Position numbers and translations under genes: made by a program. A stretch of DNA of 64,000 nt from a phage, in the NCBI GenBank assembly GCA_036930585.1, contig GCA_036930585.1_3066.1. One strand, written 5' to 3'. This document shows positions 552-46,808 of the stretch, piece by piece. Each line of letters begins with the position of its first letter. The first letter of the stretch is position 1. The notes beneath the pieces are model-generated. The model made no database searches. It saw nothing but the letters and a program-made list of their open reading frames with translations, and was not told the origin of the DNA.

Positions 552-1054
552 TTAAAAGTATTTTTTAAAACTCATCATAACTTTATCATCAACATCATTA
601 TCAATCTGTGCAACAAGATAAGATGACAGTTCTACTTCTTGTGGCGCTGATTGAACATTATCAGAATTAAGATATTCACGAATCCAAGGATATGGATGTT
701 TAACCGGAGCATCGGTAATTGGGCATGGAAGACCACACTGTTTCATACGAGATACAGTTAAGTAATCAATAAAGCTCCACATGCTATTTGTATTTAATCC
801 AGGAACATCGCCATCTTTAAATAAATGAACTGCCCAATCTTTTTCTTGGCGGTTAACTTCCATGAAAATATCAACTGCTTCTTGTTCGCACTCTTGAGCA
901 ATTTTAACCCATTCATCGCCATCAGTGCCAAGTTGAAGTTGACGAATAATATATTGGGTGCCTTTAAGGTGAAGCTGCTCATCACGAGCAATGAACTTCA
1001 TAATCTTGGCATTACCTTCCATGATTTCCATGTTCTTATGGAAGTTAAAGGTAC
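552..1054 (-). CDS. nrdB: Ribonucleotide reductase small subunit NrdB, exon 2
   Basis: MEIMEGNAKIMKFIARDE... C-terminal half of class Ia R2; joins exon 1 across intron to give ...FYVSFAC|TFNFHKNMEIMEG. Confidence 0.85.
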
Positions 1055-1648
1055 CGTTATGTTCGATTGAGCTCGCTAATTCTCAACCCGTTCTCTTATG
1101 AACTGCTACATATTACTATGCAGACCAGACTATATCACAATCCCAGAGGGATTCTCCCCATTTCGAGTCGCTTGACCCTACGTCCGAAGACTAGTCGTTG
1201 AACCTTGCTTTGCAATTGTCGCCGTGCCATCGTTTATATGTTGATGGTGATAAATCTTTCTTATCACAATATGGACAATTCAATTGAATTCTATTTGGAT
1301 TTAATTTACATCTGTCATTATGTTTTAGATAAAATCCAGGACATTTACCAATGTGACCGCAGAAATCACATGTGATTTCTTTTTGTGCAGGATGGGTCCC
1401 GTTCTTAACCATTTCTAATGTTTTTGCTGATGTTCTTTTCTTATGGTCTTCCATCAGAATCTTTAGGTATAGGTCCGTTAGCATCTATCCAAATTTTTCT
1501 ATAGTTCAATTGTGCATCCTCTTAAAAGTATAATCATATTATACTAATTAAAGGTGCAAGCAAAACCTTGGCTGCTAGTTTTCCTATAAAGGACTTTCCA
1601 GCAATTAAAGGAGTTTTCGATAAACGTTACCGTTTAAAGGCGCATTTT
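1055..1648 (-). mobile_element. Group I intron in nrdB (594 nt) carrying a truncated homing endonuclease ORF
   Basis: Exon 1 ends in U (1649), intron ends in G (1055); splice restores the Cys codon and reading frame of conserved NrdB. Confidence 0.8.
1191..1484 (-). pseudogene. Intron-encoded endonuclease remnant (I-TevIII-like, 97 aa, zinc-finger part only)
   Basis: ORF inside nrdB intron with CxxC...CxxC motifs but no HNH catalytic region. Confidence 0.55.
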
Positions 1649-2324
1649 ACGCAAAAGATACATAAAAACGAATAGCTTCCAATGCATTGATTACATGGAG
1701 GCAAAGATAAAGAGACTTCATTAGTGCTCGTTTAGCTTCGGCTTCTTGTTTAATAGCTCGATTTAAACGAAAATCAGCATCAGGAGATTCTTTAGCTAGT
1801 TCTACAAATTCTTTAGCGTTTTCCCATTCACGGGTTTTAATCAGAACGTCATCATAATAACGTCCAATGGATTCAGCACGTTTCATGATAGCTTCATCTA
1901 ATACAATCTCATCAAATACCTTAGCAGGGTCATTGAACAAGTTACGCATGATATGGGTATATGAACGACTGTGAATAGTTTCGCTAAAAGTCCATGTAGC
2001 AACCCATGTATCAAGGCTTGGATCTGAAAGCAATGGCATAAGTACAGCAGACGGCGCACGCCCCTGGATGGAGTCTAACAATGACTGGTATTTTAAGTTA
2101 TTGATAAATATAGATTTTTGATGTTCTGGGAGCTTGTTAAATTGTGCAGCATCCATCATTAAGTTTACTTCTTCAGGCCGCCAGAAAAATGATAAAGATC
2201 GCTCAATAAGTTCTTCAAATACCTTATGTCGTTGAATATCATAACGTGCAATTCCAAGACCTGAACCGAAGAACATAGGTTCTGTTAAAACATCAACTGG
2301 ATTTGTATTAAAAACTGTAGACAT
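1649..2324 (-). CDS. nrdB: Ribonucleotide reductase small subunit NrdB, exon 1
   Basis: MSTVFNTNPVDV...EAIRFYVSFA; in-frame TAA immediately after 5' splice site. Confidence 0.85.
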
Positions 2325-2376: not shown

Positions 2377-4641
2377 TCATAATTTACACGCTGCACAATC
2401 GTCGGCTTTAGGAGTTTCTATTTCATAATCATCAGTACCAGAACCATCACGGGTATTATGATAATAGAAATTTTTAATGCCATAATACCATCCGTATAAC
2501 ATGTCATCAATCATTATTGACATTGGAACCTTTCCTTTTGGAAAAATCTGCGGGTCATAGTATGTATTCGCTGAAGCTGATTGACATACCCATTTCAGCA
2601 TAATAGCTACCTGCGTAAGATAAGGTTTATTACCTTTCTTAGCTAATTTCCACGTATAATCATAGAGGTCTATGTTATGCTCAATATTGGGCACGACTTG
2701 ATTAAAGGAACCCTCTTTTGATTCTTTAACAGAGACTGGTCCACGTGGAGGCTCGATACCGTTTGTACTGTTAGAAACTTGGGAAGATGACTCACATGGC
2801 ATAAGTGCTGATAATGTGCTATTACGGATGCCAAAGAGCTTAAGGTCTTCCCGCAGCGACGACCAGTCACAAACGTATTTTGGAGCTGCGATTTGGTCAA
2901 TCTTTTTATTGTACCAGTCGATAGGTAATTCGCCTCGAGACCAACGAGTGTCTGAATAATATTCGCAAGGTCCTTTTTCTTTGGCGAGCTTAATGGATGC
3001 TTTAATGAGCCCATACTGTAATCTCTCAAATAGTTCATGTGTTAAATCGTTAGCATCTTCGTAAGAAGCAAAGTTACTTGCCAGCCAAGCTGCATAGTTA
3101 GTAACACCTACACCGAGGTTTCGACGCTTTTTAGCTTTTAAAGCTTCTGGAACTGGATATCCTTGGTAATCCAACAGATTATCAAGAGCACGAACTTGAA
3201 CTTCTGCCAATTCATTAATTTTATCTTGGTCTTGCCAGTCAAAATTATCTAGTACGAATGCAGAGAGAGTACACAATCCAATTTCAGCATCAGGACTATT
3301 CACATCATTTGTTGGAATAGCAATTTCACAGCACAAGTTACTCTGGCGAATAGGTGCCTTTTCACGAATAAACGGAGTATAGTTATTCGTATTATCAATG
3401 AACTGCACATAAATCCTTGCCGTTCCTGAACGTTCAGTCATGAGCAATTCAAATAGTTCACGGGCTTTAATACGCTTTTTGCGAATATTAGGGTCTTTTT
3501 CTGCTGCTTCGTATAATTCACGGAAACGGTCTTGGTCTTTAAAATAAGAATAATAAAGCTCTCCACCCATTTCATGCGGACTGAACAAAGTAATGTAATC
3601 ATTCTTTCCGAATCGTTCCATCATTAGGTCATTCAGTTGAACGCCATAATCCATATGACGGATACGGTTTTCTTCTACGCCTTTGTTATTTTTCAAAACG
3701 AGAAGATTTTCAACTTCCAAATGCCAAATAGGATAATAAGCAGTAGCAGCGCCGCCACGAATTCCACCCTGTGAGCATGATTTAACAGCAGTCTGAAAAT
3801 GTTTCCAAAAAGGAATAACACCAGTATGGCGTACTTCACCTGTGCCAATCTTAGAACCTTCAGCACGAATCATACCAACGTTAATACCAATTCCAGCGCG
3901 TTTAGAGATATATTCAACAATTGAAGCAGAAGCCTTATTGATAGACTTCAGTGAATCGCCTGCCTCAATAACAACACATGAACTAAACTGCCGAGTTGGA
4001 GTACGGCAACCAGCCATAATAGGAGTTGGTAATGAAATCTGTCGAGTAGATACCGCTTCATAAAAACGGATAACATGTTTTAATCTATCAACAGGTTCAT
4101 CTTGATGCAATGCCATTCCAATAGTCATAAATGCAAACTGTGGAGTTTCATAAATTTGACCAGTGGTTTTATCTTTAACTAGATATTTTTCTTTTAATTG
4201 CATCGCCCCGGAATAAGTAAATTCCATATCCCGCTCGTGCTTAATTTTTGATTCTAAAAATGTAATTTCTTCTGCTGAATATTTTGACAATAATTCAGGG
4301 TCATATTTACCTTCATTTACACAGTAAGAAATATGGTCAATAAATGAACGTGGTTCATACTGCCCATAAACATGCTTACGAAGAGCAAACATTAAACAGC
4401 GTGCAGCTACATATTGATAATCAGGCTCTTCAACCGAAATAGAATTCGCAGCGGCCTTAATGACAATAGTCTGAATGTCATCAGTTGTCATTCCATCACG
4501 GAGATATGATTTAATATTTTCATATAATTCATAAGGATCTACTGATGTTCCCTCAGATGCCCAAGATAAAACTTTAATAATTTTTTGCGGGTCAAAGCTC
4601 TGAGAAACACCACTACTTTTGATAACATTAATTAATTGCAT
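2377..4641 (-). CDS. nrdA: Ribonucleotide reductase large subunit NrdA (754 aa)
   Basis: 754-aa ORF with class Ia R1 features (C-terminal CxxC, active-site region); length matches T4 NrdA. Confidence 0.95.
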   Translation of the reverse strand: MQLINVIKSSGVSQSFDPQKIIKVLSWASEGTSVDPYELYENIKSYLRDGMTTDDIQTIVIKAAANSISVEEPDYQYVAARCLMFALRKHVYGQYEPRSFIDHISYCVNEGKYDPELLSKYSAEEITFLESKIKHERDMEFTYSGAMQLKEKYLVKDKTTGQIYETPQFAFMTIGMALHQDEPVDRLKHVIRFYEAVSTRQISLPTPIMAGCRTPTRQFSSCVVIEAGDSLKSINKASASIVEYISKRAGIGINVGMIRAEGSKIGTGEVRHTGVIPFWKHFQTAVKSCSQGGIRGGAATAYYPIWHLEVENLLVLKNNKGVEENRIRHMDYGVQLNDLMMERFGKNDYITLFSPHEMGGELYYSYFKDQDRFRELYEAAEKDPNIRKKRIKARELFELLMTERSGTARIYVQFIDNTNNYTPFIREKAPIRQSNLCCEIAIPTNDVNSPDAEIGLCTLSAFVLDNFDWQDQDKINELAEVQVRALDNLLDYQGYPVPEALKAKKRRNLGVGVTNYAAWLASNFASYEDANDLTHELFERLQYGLIKASIKLAKEKGPCEYYSDTRWSRGELPIDWYNKKIDQIAAPKYVCDWSSLREDLKLFGIRNSTLSALMPCESSSQVSNSTNGIEPPRGPVSVKESKEGSFNQVVPNIEHNIDLYDYTWKLAKKGNKPYLTQVAIMLKWVCQSASANTYYDPQIFPKGKVPMSIMIDDMLYGWYYGIKNFYYHNTRDGSGTDDYEIETPKADDCAACKL

Positions 4642-4775
4642 AAGTCCTCAACTTGAAAATCGTCTTTAAACAATCGGTTAACTATATGAGCTATTATATC
4701 ACCATGACACGGCTTTGGTTTACATGTGCATCCTAGCCTCATTCCACGTAAAGGCTCTAAATGTGCTTTAGTTAT

Positions 4776-4958
4776 TTATCCGGATTTAATTCGACGTATA
4801 AAATCTTTTTTGAATAATTCAATGGCAGCCTCCCGGCTGCCAGCATCTTTACCGACGTAATTTCCCCAAAATGTACCACGGTGAATATTAACATCAAAGT
4901 CGGATTTATATTTATTCACTACCTGGCATAGACGGCCCGCGCGGTGATAATTCGTCAT
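4776..4958 (-). CDS. Hypothetical small protein (DUF4326-like core [12 protein letters not shown])
   Basis: 60-aa ORF overlapping the next ORF by 47 nt in another frame. Confidence 0.45.
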
Positions 4959-5510: not shown

Positions 5511-5830
5511 CATTATGTTCAGATAAGGTCGTTAATCTTACCCCGGAATTATATCCAGCTGCATGTCACCATGCAGATCAGACTATATCTTCAACTTGTT
5601 AAAGCAAGTTGTCTATCGTTTCGAGTCACTTGACCCTACTCCCCAAAGGGATAGTCGTTAGGCATTTATGTAGAACCAATTCCATTTATCAGATTTTACA
5701 CGGTAAGTAACTAATCCTGATGAAATTATTAAAGGGTAGTCCTACAATTTAGCACGGGATTGTCTACTAGAGAGGTCCCCCGTTTAGATAGATTACAAGT
5801 ATAAGTCACCTTATACCTAGGCCTCAATTA
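5511..5830 (-). mobile_element. td group I intron, ORF-less (320 nt)
   Basis: Intron starts UAAUUGAGGCC after exon ...UUGGGU and ends ...ACAUAAUG; only the last ~23 codons of an I-TevI-like ORF (..GLVTYRVKSDKWNWFYINA*) remain. Confidence 0.85.
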
Positions 5831-20790: not shown

Positions 20791-21591
20791 ATGGCAGTAG
20801 TTGGTGTTCCTGGTTGGATTGGAAGTTCAGCCGCAAATGAAACAGGACAGCGCTGGATGAGTCAAGCGGCTGGTCAATTAAGATTGGGTGTTCCTTGCTG
20901 GATGAGTCAATTTGCAGGTCGCTCACGAGAAATTATTCACACGCTTGGAGCAGACCATAACTTCAATGGTCAATGGTTCCGAGATAGATGTTTTGAGGCA
21001 GGTAGTGCACCTATAGTGTTTAATATTACCGGAAATTTGGTATCATATTCTAGAGACGTTCCTTTATTCTTCATGTATGGAGATACACCTAATGAATATG
21101 TTCAGTTGAATATTGGTGGCGGCGTCCATATGTGGGGTAGAGGTGGACAAGGTGGATGGACCCATTCCGGCGGAAATGGTAATGGTCAACAAGGTGGTCA
21201 TTGTATTCAAAATGACATCGGTGGACGATTAAGAATTAATAACGGTGGAGTAATTTGTGGTGGAGGTGGAGGTGGAGGTGGTATCGCTTATCGTCCTCAC
21301 TCTGGTGCAAATTGGCAAGATATTGGTGGTGGTGGAGGAAGACCATTTGGCCCAGGAGGAGGCGGAGGTTATTCCGGCGGCGCAGCTTCTTATGATGGCC
21401 CAGGAGGTGGTTACCAATACGGAAATGCTCACTCTGGCCAGGGTGGTGGTGCCGGAGGAAATGGACAAAATGCCTGGTCTGATGGTGGTAAAGTTCTAAA
21501 AGTTGGAGCTGGTGGCGCTGCCGGATATGCTGTTATAGGATCAGCTCCAACATGGCAAAATGTTGGAGTAATATATGGTCCAAGAGTATAA
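20791..21591 (+). CDS. 38: Receptor-recognising adhesin gp38 (T2-type, glycine-rich motifs)
   Basis: 266 aa; [44 protein letters not shown]... with poly-Gly blocks. Confidence 0.85.
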
Positions 21592-21622: not shown

Positions 21623-22279
21623 ATGGCAGCACCTAGAATATCATTTTCGCCCTCTGATATTCTATTTGGTGTTCTAGATCGCTTGTTCAAAGATAACGCT
21701 ACCGGGAAAGTTCTTGCTTCCCGGGTAGCTGTCGTAATTCTTTTATTTATGATGGCGATTGTTTGGTATAGGGGAGATAGTTTCTTTGAGTACTATAAGC
21801 AATCAAAGTATGAAACATACAGTGAAATTATTGAAAAGGAAAGAAATGCACGCTTTGAATCTGTCGCCCTGGAACAACTCCAGATAGTTCATATATCATC
21901 TGAGGCAGACTTTAGTGCGGTGTATTCTTTCCGCCCTAAAAACTTAAACTATTTTGTTGATATTATAGCATATGAAGGAAAATTACCTTCAACAATAAGC
22001 GAAAAATCACTTGGAGGATATCCTGTTGATAAAACTATGGATGAATATGCAGTTCATTTAAATGGACATCATTATTATTCCAACTCAAAATTTGCTTTTT
22101 TACCAACCAAAAAGCCTACTCCTGAAATAAATTACATGTACAGTTGTCCATATTTCAATTTGGATAATATCTATGCTGGAACAATAACCATGTACTGGTA
22201 TAGAAATGATCATATAAGTAATGACCGCCTTGAATCAATATGTGCTCAGGCGGCCAGAATATTAGGAAGGGCTAAATAA
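21623..22279 (+). CDS. t: Holin T
   Basis: 218-aa ORF with one N-terminal TM segment and large periplasmic domain; strong AAAGGAGG SD. Confidence 0.9.
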   Translation: MAAPRISFSPSDILFGVLDRLFKDNATGKVLASRVAVVILLFMMAIVWYRGDSFFEYYKQSKYETYSEIIEKERNARFESVALEQLQIVHISSEADFSAVYSFRPKNLNYFVDIIAYEGKLPSTISEKSLGGYPVDKTMDEYAVHLNGHHYYSNSKFAFLPTKKPTPEINYMYSCPYFNLDNIYAGTITMYWYRNDHISNDRLESICAQAARILGRAK

Positions 22280-23069: not shown

Positions 23070-23294
23070 TTAAAATTGTGTTTTGCGACTAAATTGTTCA
23101 TAGTGCTGAATTACCTCTCTCAAACACTTGCATGTGAATGAAAACTTTTTAGCTACACCACATTCAAATATATGTTCTCTTAAATCACGTGTGTCAGTAT
23201 ATCCCATCTCAACAATAAAATGTCTTATTAGATTTTTATCTTTATCATTGAGCGAATTAAAATAATCGGATTTTGAATTAATTTCCCTGGCCAA
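23070..23294 (-). CDS. Hypothetical protein (74 aa)
   Basis: ORF track. Confidence 0.45.
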   Translation of the reverse strand: MAREINSKSDYFNSLNDKDKNLIRHFIVEMGYTDTRDLREHIFECGVAKKFSFTCKCLREVIQHYEQFSRKTQF

Positions 23295-23574
23295 ATTGAA
23301 TCACCTTCAGTTGACGTTTTAGTTCTTTTATCATTTCTTCGTTCATCGCAATATAAAGATCGCGTAAAGCAGGTTTTAGCATTCCATTTACCGGAGAACT
23401 AAATGGGCATACATAATCTTTTCCTACAAGCTTTTTGGTAAATTCCATATCACAAAATTTAAATGCTGGCTCATTCGCATAAATTCCCCAATTAGTTGAC
23501 ATCATTTTATTGGCATATTCCAATGCCTGAATTTGATTCATAATTCCATCGATTTGAAACTTTTTAATATTCAT
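23278..23574 (-). CDS. Hypothetical protein (98 aa)
   Basis: ORF track. Confidence 0.45.
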   Translation of the reverse strand: MNIKKFQIDGIMNQIQALEYANKMMSTNWGIYANEPAFKFCDMEFTKKLVGKDYVCPFSSPVNGMLKPALRDLYIAMNEEMIKELKRQLKVIQFGQGN

Positions 23575-23768
23575 TAGTAAAGGTCCTCAGAGTAAAGTTC
23601 TTTTTCACTACCACCACGTTCAATACGTACTTGTCCAGCGTAAGTTGCAATAATGATTGCTTCTTCACGTGTCCAATAATTACTATATTGGTCAATAAAC
23701 CCTTGGTCATCATCACAAACTTGTTGAGTAACTAATTGAGGTTTAACTACATCTAAAACTTCGGCCAT
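23574..23768 (-). CDS. Hypothetical protein (64 aa); in frame with upstream 53-aa ORF across a TGA
   Basis: ORF track; frame stays open upstream to the TGA at 23877..23879. Confidence 0.45.
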
Positions 23769-23876
23769 ATCTTTAGAATAATGACGAGCACCTGGAATAA
23801 TAAGAGTTCGTCCATCTTTTAATTTAAAACGGTTGGCTGCGCAGACAATTCGTCGTTGATACTTTTGGTTTTCATC

Positions 23877-24038
23877 TCAATACGCAGTCTGCCAACATAT
23901 TTCAGGAACTTCTTTCAGAACATCTTCTTCCGTATAATTAGTATAACCTGCTGATTTAAATTTTTCGGCTAAACTCTCTGGAGTCTCACGAGATAATGCA
24001 ACGTTTAGCATTTCAAGTCTTTCTTCAAATGTTTTCAT
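23877..24038 (-). CDS. Hypothetical small protein (53 aa)
   Basis: ATG 24038 overlaps upstream stop as ATGA; [11 protein letters not shown]... Confidence 0.35.
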
Positions 24039-24379
24039 TTAAACCATTCCTTAATACGCTGCCACAAAGTTTTCTGATGAGCTTTGTTAACACCAATTGA
24101 ACAAATAACTGATTGAGATTCCTGGAATTCTTTATAATCAGCAAGGTAAATTTCGTAAGCTGCATCCGTAAATGAACTTATCGCTGCCATAAAGTTTTTA
24201 CGTACACCGCCTGGAGCTACTCCATTAGGGAATTCGGAATTTTCGAGAATAATTAAATATAACCCAGCTCTAACTTTAACGATAGTTCCAAGATAAGCCC
24301 CGTGGTACCAGATATCCCACCCCTCTTGAGTGGGTTCTGCACAACGACGAAGTTCATTAACAATTTCTAACTTGTTCAT
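24035..24379 (-). CDS. Hypothetical protein (motA.1-like, 114 aa)
   Basis: ORF track. Confidence 0.55.
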
Positions 24380-33201: not shown

Positions 33202-33231
33202 ATTATACCACATCCTTGTGGTAAAGTAAAC
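33202..33231 (-). promoter_or_regulatory. Early promoter (GTTTAC -35, TATAAT -10) inside 3' end of gene 60
   Basis: Minus strand GTTTACTTTACCACAAGGATGTGGTATAAT. Confidence 0.5.
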
Positions 33232-33763
33232 TACTGGCTCATCCATTCTTTACGAAGGTCAGCATTATCTCCCATGAGCATTTCAAAAAGTTCTTTCCAA
33301 TTCTCAGGAAGTTTAACAACATCATATACTGGATTTTGAATCATCTCACGATATTCAGATTTTTCCAAAGAGCCAAGTCCTTTAATATAACGGATGCTAT
33401 GTTTAGGTAGAGCATCTTTGGCACTCTCATATTCAGCGACTGTATAAAACCATTCTTGTTTTTTACCGACCTGAGCGATGATTACAGGAGTTTTGACGAA
33501 GCGAATTCTTCCTTGTTCAAACAGTTCTGGCCAATTACTAAAAAATCCGAGCAGAGAAGGATAAATAGAACCTAATCCAATAATCTCTTAATTATGAGGT
33601 ATTTCTATAGATAGCCCGAAGGCTATCCATCGTGATCTGCGTCTGTCATAATAGCGACATTCGCATAGTTCATTGAAGAGGATTTAATAGAACGACGAAC
33701 ATTGTTCTGCAATTTATATTTTTTCATATCAACGCTAGAAGAATCAATTTTTACAAATTTCAT
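33231..33763 (-). CDS. 60: Topoisomerase II subunit gp60, with 50-nt translational bypass
   Basis: Codons 1-46 (MKFVKIDSS...TDADHDG) end at GGA 33628..33626 followed by TAG; translation resumes at UUA 33575..33573 (LGSIYPSLLGFF...) to stop 33233..33231. Confidence 0.85.
33576..33625 (-). promoter_or_regulatory. Gene 60 coding gap (bypass element): take-off GGA, stop UAG, UUCG-loop hairpin, landing GGA
   Basis: GGA UAG CCUUCGGGCUA UCUAUAGAAAUACCUCAUAAUUAAGAGAUUAUUGGA UUA read directly from the minus strand. Confidence 0.85.
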
Positions 33764-34562
33764 TATACACCTCATAGAACTTTTCATCAGGAATCCAACC
33801 GCGTTTAAATTCATTAAATGCTCGGCCGAATAATTTTGAATTCACAGTTATATTATTAACTGATTTCCATTTAGCAACTCCCGTTCGTTTATAATGATCG
33901 GGGTCATATTTCGTGACGTACCATTCATATAAATTTGGTATTAATTTTACAGCCTCTGGATTTGTCGCTGATTTATTATACCATGGTTTCGCTTTTTCAA
34001 GTTCAGCTGCTTTTGCAGTAGCAGCAACAGTATTTCCAATACCAACTAATTTTTCAGCTTTAATGCGTGGGTCATTAACATGAAGACGAAAAACTTCGCC
34101 TTTTTCATTTTTAAAGCATGTCATGCCTTTAATTCCAGGAAGCTTAACACCTTTATTAACGCCGCACCATTCCTTTGGGTTAAATGATCCTTTAATTAAT
34201 AAGGCGCATTTACCCGATTTAATACTTCTCATTAAAACTTTATTTTTCATAAAGTTTTTTGACCATTCAGATACTGCTCTTTGATGGTAAATTCTAGCAA
34301 TTTCATATAATTTACTAGAACGTAAATATTTTTCAGTGTTTAACATTCTATTCATCGCATATGCCATTTCACGATTACGATGAATTTTATATAGTAGAAA
34401 ATGTGCTAAAAAGTGTTCACGAAAAGTCAGTTTCACCAAATTTTCTTTATCATCAGAACCTCCCATTGATCTTGGAAGGATATGATGAATTTCACCCTTA
34501 AATTTAGAAACGCGGGTTTTACCCCGCGCTATTAAGTCATTATAGATTTTTTCGTAATTCAC
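33744..34562 (-). CDS. mobA: HNH homing endonuclease MobA (272-aa ORF; start uncertain)
   Basis: Free-standing ORF between 39 and 60, overlapping both; HNH-like HH...N...H region (EIHHILPRSMGGSDDKENLVKLTFREHFLAH). Confidence 0.7.
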   Translation of the reverse strand: MNYEKIYNDLIARGKTRVSKFKGEIHHILPRSMGGSDDKENLVKLTFREHFLAHFLLYKIHRNREMAYAMNRMLNTEKYLRSSKLYEIARIYHQRAVSEWSKNFMKNKVLMRSIKSGKCALLIKGSFNPKEWCGVNKGVKLPGIKGMTCFKNEKGEVFRLHVNDPRIKAEKLVGIGNTVAATAKAAELEKAKPWYNKSATNPEAVKLIPNLYEWYVTKYDPDHYKRTGVAKWKSVNNITVNSKLFGRAFNEFKRGWIPDEKFYEVYNEICKN

Positions 34563-36093
34563 CTACTGTTATCCATTTACCATTAATCTGTACTTCATCA
34601 TTTTCATTTACGATAATTGTATCGCCATTTAGTTCGAAAGTAAACCACTCGCCATCTTCTTTTTCTTCAAACGCCTTTTCACCGAGAACTAATCCAGTGA
34701 TTGCGCAAATATCAAACAATTCTTTGTTTTTAAGCATATCAGCATATGACATACCCCAACTGTTGAGAACTTTACCGCGCAATGGATAACCACCATGAAG
34801 TTCTTTATCACGAACATCAATAAGATATCCGATAGCAGAATCACCCTCAGTCAAGAAAAGAGTAGTGTCAGCATCTTTACCGCAAAGATTCGCTTTAATG
34901 TGTTTATGAACCTTAGCTTTAGAAGCCTTTTTAGCTGCTTTAGTTTCTGCTGCCTTTTCTGCCGCCAATTTACGAGCCAAAGCAGCTTCAATAATCGGCA
35001 TTAGAATTGCTTCATTATTTAGAATAGCACGTGAAATCTTTTTAGCATCAAGTTGAATATGACTACGGATTTCACCAAATGGAGAAGTCAAACGCTCTTT
35101 AGTTTGAGAATCAAATCGCATGTTTTTCATATCACGGACAAACATAACGATAGTCAAACATTCTTTAACGCGTGCTTTAGTCACATCAATTTTGAACTTA
35201 CGTTTGATTTGTGGAATAAGGTCTTCACAAATATCATCCATAACACAGTCAATGTGATGGCCACCATTCTTAGTGTGAATGTTATTCACATAAGTTAATT
35301 GACGAAAACCATCCGGTGAACGACCAACCGCAATAGAGCAATTTTCTTGTTCTTGAACGATAGCATGTTCATCATATTGGCGTGCATATTTCTTAAAATT
35401 GCCCTGAACCTTTTTACCATTAAAGGTAAATTGAATATCAGGATAAACTACTGCAAGTGTCTGGAGACGATCTAGTGTAATGTCAAGATAAACTTGGGAC
35501 AGCTCATTAGTTTCAAATGACATAAAATCAGGAATGAAAGTAACACGAGTTCCTTTCCATTTTCCAGGAATAGTTTCCCATGATTTATTTTCCATGCCAT
35601 TTGAACAACGAACTACAATATTATTTTGACCATCACCAGTTTCACCGACAAACATCACAGAAAAAATGTTTGTCAAACTAGAACCAACACCATTCATACC
35701 ACCGGTGACACGTTCTTTATCATCACCAAAGTTACCACCTGCTTTTGGAATAGTCCAGGCAGCAACAGGACCAGGAATTTCTTCACCAGTAGGTGTTTTG
35801 ACCATCGCTTGTGGAATACCGCGACCGTTATCTTCAACTGTTACTTGATTGTTTTTAATAGTAACATTAATTTTATTTGCGAATTTAAACTTAGTACGAA
35901 TACCTTCATCTACTGAGTTATCGATAATTTCATCAATAAGCTTAACAAGACCAGGTACATACTGAACACTTTCCCATTTACCAAACAGAAAGCGCTCATG
36001 CATTTCATTAGCAGAAGAGCCAATATACATGCCGCTACGCTTTTTGATATGTTCAATATCGCTCAGAATTTTAATTTCATTCTTAATCATCAC
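34540..36093 (-). CDS. 39: DNA topoisomerase II large subunit gp39 (ATPase)
   Basis: 517-aa ORF with GHKL ATPase motifs (IDNSVDE, GxxGxG). Confidence 0.95.
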   Translation of the reverse strand: MMIKNEIKILSDIEHIKKRSGMYIGSSANEMHERFLFGKWESVQYVPGLVKLIDEIIDNSVDEGIRTKFKFANKINVTIKNNQVTVEDNGRGIPQAMVKTPTGEEIPGPVAAWTIPKAGGNFGDDKERVTGGMNGVGSSLTNIFSVMFVGETGDGQNNIVVRCSNGMENKSWETIPGKWKGTRVTFIPDFMSFETNELSQVYLDITLDRLQTLAVVYPDIQFTFNGKKVQGNFKKYARQYDEHAIVQEQENCSIAVGRSPDGFRQLTYVNNIHTKNGGHHIDCVMDDICEDLIPQIKRKFKIDVTKARVKECLTIVMFVRDMKNMRFDSQTKERLTSPFGEIRSHIQLDAKKISRAILNNEAILMPIIEAALARKLAAEKAAETKAAKKASKAKVHKHIKANLCGKDADTTLFLTEGDSAIGYLIDVRDKELHGGYPLRGKVLNSWGMSYADMLKNKELFDICAITGLVLGEKAFEEKEDGEWFTFELNGDTIIVNENDEVQINGKWITVGELRKNL

Positions 36094-46554: not shown

Positions 46555-46580
46555 TTGAATTATTAACCACCAGTTACTTT

Positions 46581-46808
46581 TCACAAATCTTCGTTTGCAG
46601 CAATCCATTCAGTACGCTGATTTTCTTCATATACAGTAGTATATGCTGCTTTTTCTGAAGGGAACGTCTGGTAATGAGCACCAGAAATTTTGTGAACGTC
46701 AGAATAAAGAGGGAAAGCTACTGAAATTTCCTTTCCTTTAATTTTCTTATTTCCATCTAATTTCTGCTCAAATGTTTTGATATTAACATAACCGCGAGTA
46801 CTAGCCAT
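46581..46808 (-). CDS. soc: Small outer capsid protein Soc, ending at a TGA five to six codons early
   Basis: MASTRGYVNIKTFEQKLDGNKK...AANEDL then TGA; frame continues AAA GTA ACT GGT GGT TAA (KVTGG*). Confidence 0.8.
   Translation of the reverse strand: MASTRGYVNIKTFEQKLDGNKKIKGKEISVAFPLYSDVHKISGAHYQTFPSEKAAYTTVYEENQRTEWIAANEDL

Follow-up and report, generated by a model that had tools for sequence, protein, structure and literature searches.

A private opal codon in arn.3 of a T4-like phage is most probably a leaky nonsense mutation in an accessory gene

Results

The arn.3 gene of a T4-like phage is interrupted by a TGA at codon 54 in the stretch of 64,000 nucleotides of phage DNA that we analysed (hereafter the window). 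The interruption is very probably an opal nonsense mutation, private to this phage and located in a dispensable gene, at which translation mostly terminates but leaks through by insertion of tryptophan. What the gene is, which base has changed and that the allele is private are firmly shown, as is the absence of an independent start downstream of the stop.

Two open reading frames parted by a single TGA

Translation of the minus strand between 24038 and 23574 gives 53 amino acids, a TGA at 23877–23879 and then 100 codons up to a TAA, which add up to 154 sense positions with the TGA decoded. The open reading frame listing of the window holds exactly these two parts, 23877..24038 (53 amino acids, ending in ICWQTAY) and 23574..23768 (64 amino acids, counted from the first ATG). 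This agrees with the original prediction that two ORFs share one frame across a single TGA with a potential product of 154 amino acids. The 36 codons that lie between the TGA and the ATG of the second ORF include no in-frame ATG, GTG or TTG. By itself, the two-ORF pattern is within chance. At a stop frequency of 0.066 per codon, the probability of 36 start-less open codons is about 0.09 and that of 100 open codons about 0.001, and the window includes eight sites at which a single in-frame stop parts an open frame of 53 or more codons from one of 100 or more, most of them neighbouring genes that share a frame. What makes the case real, judged from sequence comparison, is homology over the whole 154-codon frame: we took the split frame as a genuine gene because, in related phages, single uninterrupted genes align with it from one end to the other.

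The interrupted gene is the arn.3 orthologue

The window belongs to a T4-like myovirus of the genus Tequatrovirus. Its gene order t, asiA, asiA.1, arn, arn.1, arn.2, arn.3, arn.4, motA, motA.1, 52 is that of T4 and of Shigella phage Sf23, with the holin gene t at 21623–22279 on the plus strand. The split locus (23574..24038, minus strand) lies downstream of motA on the early/middle strand of the motA–asiA cluster, between orthologues of arn.4 (24035..24379, minus strand; PF26821, Phage_T4_Y16F) upstream and arn.2 (23278..23574, minus strand; PF26819, Phage_T4_Y16C) downstream. Its start codon (24036–24038) overlaps the arn.4 stop as ATGA, and its TAA overlaps the arn.2 start as TAATG. A 601-nt query around the TGA matched 611 phage records, the best of which was Sf23 (99.0%). 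The corresponding slot is occupied by one uninterrupted coding sequence of 152–154 amino acids in Sf23, Escherichia phage 107, vB-Eco-KMB22, T4 and Yersinia phage PYps14T.

Family profiles gave the same assignment. With the tryptophan restored, the protein matched phrog_839 over residues 1–153 in one stretch that spans the stop (E = 4.6e-73), and nearly all of the 110 database homologues of Arn.3 carry PF26092 (T4_Y16D). At the same locus in a Logan assembly contig described below, a PF26092 match is recorded on the C-terminal ORF and no Pfam match is recorded for the 53-amino-acid product. On synteny and profile matches, the split locus is the arn.3 orthologue (PF26092, phrog_839). T4 arn.3 (NP_049871, ‘Arn.3 conserved hypothetical protein’) shares its syntenic slot and length class with the window copy and encodes residues 55–126 identical to those of the window. 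Unlike it, the window copy has a TGA at codon 54 and a methionine-to-isoleucine change at residue 127, and over its N-terminal 40 residues it follows the Sf23 type rather than that of T4.

Tryptophan is the residue at codon 54 in relatives

DNA alignment read with the codon table placed TGG (Trp54) opposite the TGA in five of five relatives, namely T4, Sf23, phage 107, KMB22 and PYps14T, and the sequences flanking the TGA are identical to those of relatives with TGG. The altered base is 23877. Only two bases of arn.3 set the window apart from Sf23: one gives the TGA of codon 54 in place of TGG, the other turns ATG into ATC at codon 127. That a nonsense mutation had split the gene was one of the two readings originally proposed, and the comparison with related phages that was suggested as a check bears it out, as every orthologue examined is a single gene of 152–154 amino acids with Trp54 at the site and two genes with independent ribosome binding sites were not seen.

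In order to find the TGA allele elsewhere, a 61-mer centred on it was compared by megablast with 50,697 phage records. The allele was present in none of the 328 records that matched, the best of which differed by exactly one mismatch. Exact 37-mer scans found no copy in IMG/VR viral contigs, JGI metagenome contigs or 185,579 species genomes. The exact 53-amino-acid product was found on a single contig of 25 kb in a Logan assembly (SRR28171614_148), which equals the window at 100% over 6142 nt, TGA included. This contig is evidently from the same phage and probably from the same sequencing run, and hence is no independent sample; no mention of SRR28171614 was found in the literature searched. 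As far as these collections reach, the TGA allele is private to this isolate. The otherwise identical Logan contig lacks 45 nt of the gp38 adhesin gene (20852–20896, plus strand) at a short repeat; either the repeat length is heterogeneous or the two assemblies differ in this receptor-recognition protein.

Two further private stops in the window

Every annotated PYps14T coding sequence across the homologous 64 kb was compared with the window. (A first scan over all open frames of the reference was discarded in favour of annotated coding sequences, as it returned many false ‘stops’ in non-coding frames.) Besides arn.3, two genes have an in-frame stop, and the remaining genes, about 100, have no frameshift or stop. 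In soc, which encodes the small outer capsid protein (46563–46808, minus strand), TGG is changed to TGA at base 46581, codon 76 of 81, which removes the last six residues; this TGA was present in none of 69 matching phage records and is present in Logan SRR28171614. In an nrdA.1-like gene of 86 amino acids that adjoins nrdA (4632–4892, minus strand), GAA is changed to TAA at 4778, codon 39, a change found in none of 492 matching phage records; the annotated GTG start of the PYps14T gene is GTT in the window (base 4890). The reverse comparison revealed no PYps14T gene disrupted relative to the window.

An allele seen in one sample only, next to two more private stops that could suggest a noisy consensus, might stem from an error in sequencing, base calling or consensus building, or the assembler might have fixed a minority variant; in either case, the phage would really have TGG and an intact arn.3. 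We consider this very unlikely. A separate assembler returned the same base in the 25-kb contig, and its reproduction of the TGA, and of the soc TGA too, speaks against an artefact of the assembler. Error-prone reads typically bring homopolymer indels, whereas each of the three changes is a substitution, and the other genes of the window align cleanly.

The stop cuts a single conserved domain

Conservation across 48 aligned family members extends from about residue 45 (PEICW) to the C-terminus. The column of the stop holds tryptophan in 38 members, tyrosine in two and a gap in eight. Residues V65, A67, A68, R70, R85 and H86 are invariant in all 48 and fall within the 36 codons (55–90; 23769..23876, minus strand) that are in neither ORF and encode the most conserved motif of the family, ending in PGxRH. 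Together with Q112, G113, F114, D116, R124, A131 and Q136, these invariant residues are still encoded in the window, but downstream of the TGA. The AlphaFold2 model of a 98%-identical protein (P0001; mean pLDDT 87.2) has helices at residues 4–16, 20–29 and 37–43, followed by a beta/alpha domain from residue 49. Since the conserved domain begins after the three N-terminal helices in both model and alignment, the 53-amino-acid product (23877..24038) would comprise the lineage-variable helical extension only. The TGA thus cuts a single conserved domain rather than parting two modules, and by standard decoding the window arn.3 is a pseudogene or a hypomorphic allele of the Arn.3 family.

The ATG that opens the 64-amino-acid ORF mechanically (position 23768) is an internal codon, Met91, in all relatives. 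Its predicted duplex with the anti-Shine-Dalgarno sequence is only −0.9 kcal/mol, compared to −7.4 for the arn.3 start (AAGGAA, 24047..24052, minus strand), −6.2 for arn.4 and −5.8 for arn.2 (GAGGA, 23584..23588, minus strand, within the 3′ end of arn.3). Translation of the 64-amino-acid ORF on its own is unlikely. Another ATG (23873–23875, minus strand), two bases past the TGA, opens an 18-codon ORF in the +1 frame with no convincing Shine-Dalgarno sequence; this ORF starts with MKT, as arn.3 does, and old or frameshifted database entries begin with its peptide.

Gene callers do report two genes in the Logan contig, and in-frame neighbours with one stop between them are common in this genome, as the eight pairs above demonstrate. 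That 23574..24038 holds two genuine small genes whose shared frame is a coincidence is nonetheless barely conceivable: the distal ORF lacks a Shine-Dalgarno sequence, 36 conserved codons would be left non-coding and every orthologue is one gene.

No sign of programmed recoding at the TGA

We then considered whether decoding of the TGA is deliberate, be it by stimulated readthrough, as selenocysteine or under a code in which TGA is tryptophan, such that the 154-amino-acid protein is made at functional levels or in a regulated ratio with the 53-amino-acid product. The frame is open on both sides of the TGA, near-cognate decoding would insert the ancestral tryptophan, and a second private TGG-to-TGA change is found in soc. 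Set against these points, the stop occurs in no relative and interrupts a single conserved domain. The 76 nt from the TGA onwards fold with a minimum free energy of −10.7 kcal/mol, compared to −9.7 ± 2.4 for shuffled sequences (z = −0.43), with no SECIS-like or stimulatory hairpin. TGA is the terminator of 29 of the 93 coding frames in the window, including that of arn.4 directly upstream, and no tRNA gene was found within the 64 kb, so that no suppressor tRNA is encoded there. We regard deliberate decoding as extremely improbable, and as far as sequence permits, programmed recoding is excluded.

The three forms of recoding were rejected on separate grounds. Programmed readthrough would call for a conserved stop, while TGG is found in the five relatives and TGA in none of the 328 records, and for a stimulatory structure or context, which is missing. 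For selenocysteine, there is no significant hairpin and relatives have tryptophan, not cysteine or selenocysteine. Genetic code 4 (TGA = Trp) is at odds with the 29 of 93 frames that end in TGA and with in-frame TGAs in only two of about 100 genes. The proposal of a readthrough product that accompanied the original prediction therefore holds only as basal leakiness of UGA; the absence of the TGA from relatives, the unstructured downstream RNA and the normal use of TGA as terminator speak against anything more.

The UGA readthrough that extends the Qbeta coat protein to A1 is programmed, and in this case, as in the translational bypass of T4 gene 60, an in-frame stop lies inside a longer open frame, as it does in arn.3. 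The programmed events are kept among relatives and have defined signals, whereas the TGA of arn.3 is private to one phage, lacks any flanking signal and falls within one domain. The window itself includes a genuine gene 60 bypass (GAT GGA TAG, a 50-nt gap, then TTA; 33573–33628, gap 33576–33625).

Gene 60 is part of a T4-type split topoisomerase (33231–36093, minus strand), made up of gene 39 (34540–36093), the HNH homing endonuclease gene mobA (33744–34562) and gene 60 with its bypass; PYps14T has a single fused gene of 605 amino acids where the window has the split topoisomerase. In the window, nrdB is interrupted by about 600 nt (1053–1649, minus strand), consistent with the T4 nrdB group I intron, and the td exons are only about 317 nt apart (5514–5830, minus strand), with just the last 22 residues of the PYps14T homing endonuclease remaining. 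Several homing-endonuclease and small genes of PYps14T have no counterpart in the window, which points to mosaic mobile-element content.

Disrupted arn.3 alleles in other lineages

Two other disruptions of arn.3 were observed. A metagenome contig of about 5x coverage (ENA ERZ13405069; L008:1339-1776) has a 1-nt frameshift in a AAATTAAAAG run. The gene caller gives a 91-amino-acid C-terminal product that starts in the +1 frame, and an old T4 entry (P0022, 99 amino acids) reads similarly frame-shifted. In another Tequatrovirus lineage (ENA ERZ24909966 NODE_4, 168 kb; L009:1403-1719), the 5′ part of arn.3 (nt 1–215) is inverted relative to its 3′ part and the neighbouring genes. A perfect 10-bp inverted repeat, CTTAAAGCGG / CCGCTTTAAG, located at the RFK codons, flanks the inversion, which is about 300 bp long. 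The same disrupted protein is encoded on seven contigs, this one and six others. The disrupted alleles, including the one in the 5x-coverage contig, support the view that arn.3 is dispensable.

Discussion

The course of events at arn.3 would be as follows. A recent G-to-A transition replaced the conserved TGG of Trp54 by an opal TGA. Ribosomes that load at the normal arn.3 ribosome binding site would mostly terminate there and release a 53-amino-acid helical fragment that does not include the whole conserved T4_Y16D domain, so that the gene would be essentially knocked out. The mutation has probably been tolerated because arn.3 is a dispensable accessory gene.

Termination at UGA is incomplete in E. 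coli, as Trp-tRNA(Trp) competes with RF2 for the codon and decodes it at a low rate. In the K-12 strain BW25113, such readthrough amounts to about 2% at 37 °C, compared to about 4% at 25 °C (PMC10570021). On this host biology, a few percent of the ribosomes would insert tryptophan at the arn.3 UGA, which stands in the context UAU UGA G, and complete the protein, and since tryptophan is the ancestral residue at codon 54, this fraction would be authentic full-length Arn.3 of 17.5 kDa. The TGA allele is thus probably a leaky hypomorph and no strict null. Classical leaky opal mutants of E. coli phages likewise have TGG changed to TGA, and decoding by tRNA-Trp restores their original residue. Those mutants were selected as conditional-lethals, whereas the arn.3 TGA arose in nature or in the stock, affects a non-essential gene and is leaky by inference. 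Downstream, arn.2 should still be translated, since it retains its own GAGGA Shine-Dalgarno sequence; some translational coupling might be lost, or Rho-type polarity might act, on the arn.4–arn.3–arn.2–arn.1–arn transcript.

Loss of Arn.3, perhaps together with the changes in soc and the nrdA.1-like gene, might instead have been adaptive and selected by escape from a host defence that senses the protein or by laboratory propagation. The lineage of the window has three private nonsense changes in accessory genes and that of PYps14T has none, arn.3 is independently disrupted in other lineages, the arn cluster is suspected of counter-defence roles and phage ‘large polyvalent proteins’ include a domain with the Arn.3 fold. 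We judge selection unlikely, as three stops among about 2146 substitutions between the window and PYps14T (0.14%) fit neutral decay of dispensable genes and selection need not be invoked. A more specific version, in which arn.3 Trp54opal, soc Trp76opal and the nrdA.1-like Glu39ochre form a selected set that arose by loss-of-function escape from a defence sensing these accessory proteins or by growth in a host that efficiently suppresses UGA by inserting tryptophan, seems to us a little more doubtful still; if it were true, such a suppressing host would make both TGG-to-TGA changes nearly silent.

Homology searches gave few clues to what the phage would lose with Arn.3. With Arn.3 as query, a local copy of Pfam-A returned only sub-threshold noise, a sequence profile search of the PDB returned nothing below E = 0.39 and Foldseek of the AlphaFold2 model against the PDB found no match below E = 0.087. 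In BFVD, the only fold matches were to segments of ‘large polyvalent proteins’ and to phage proteins of many genera that are themselves uncharacterised; these may give a weak hint of a role in phage–host conflict. A literature search for ‘arn.3’ found one relevant paper only, which assigns no function to it (bioRxiv 10.64898/2026.06.19.733364). According to this paper, the arn genes form a single transcript in T2, their functions are stated to be unknown and the cluster is suspected of counter-defence roles (bioRxiv 10.64898/2026.06.19.733364).

On balance, the window has an ordinary broken or leaky copy of a known accessory gene, and its TGA does not signal recoding. For annotation, this means that the two ORFs belong in one entry for a disrupted arn.3, whether termed a pseudogene or an opal allele, rather than in two for hypothetical proteins. 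In this allele, nature itself provides evidence that a phage can survive the loss of arn.3, a gene conserved widely among T-even phages. The isolate is also a ready-made near-null arn.3 mutant with which the suspected counter-defence role of the arn cluster could be tested.
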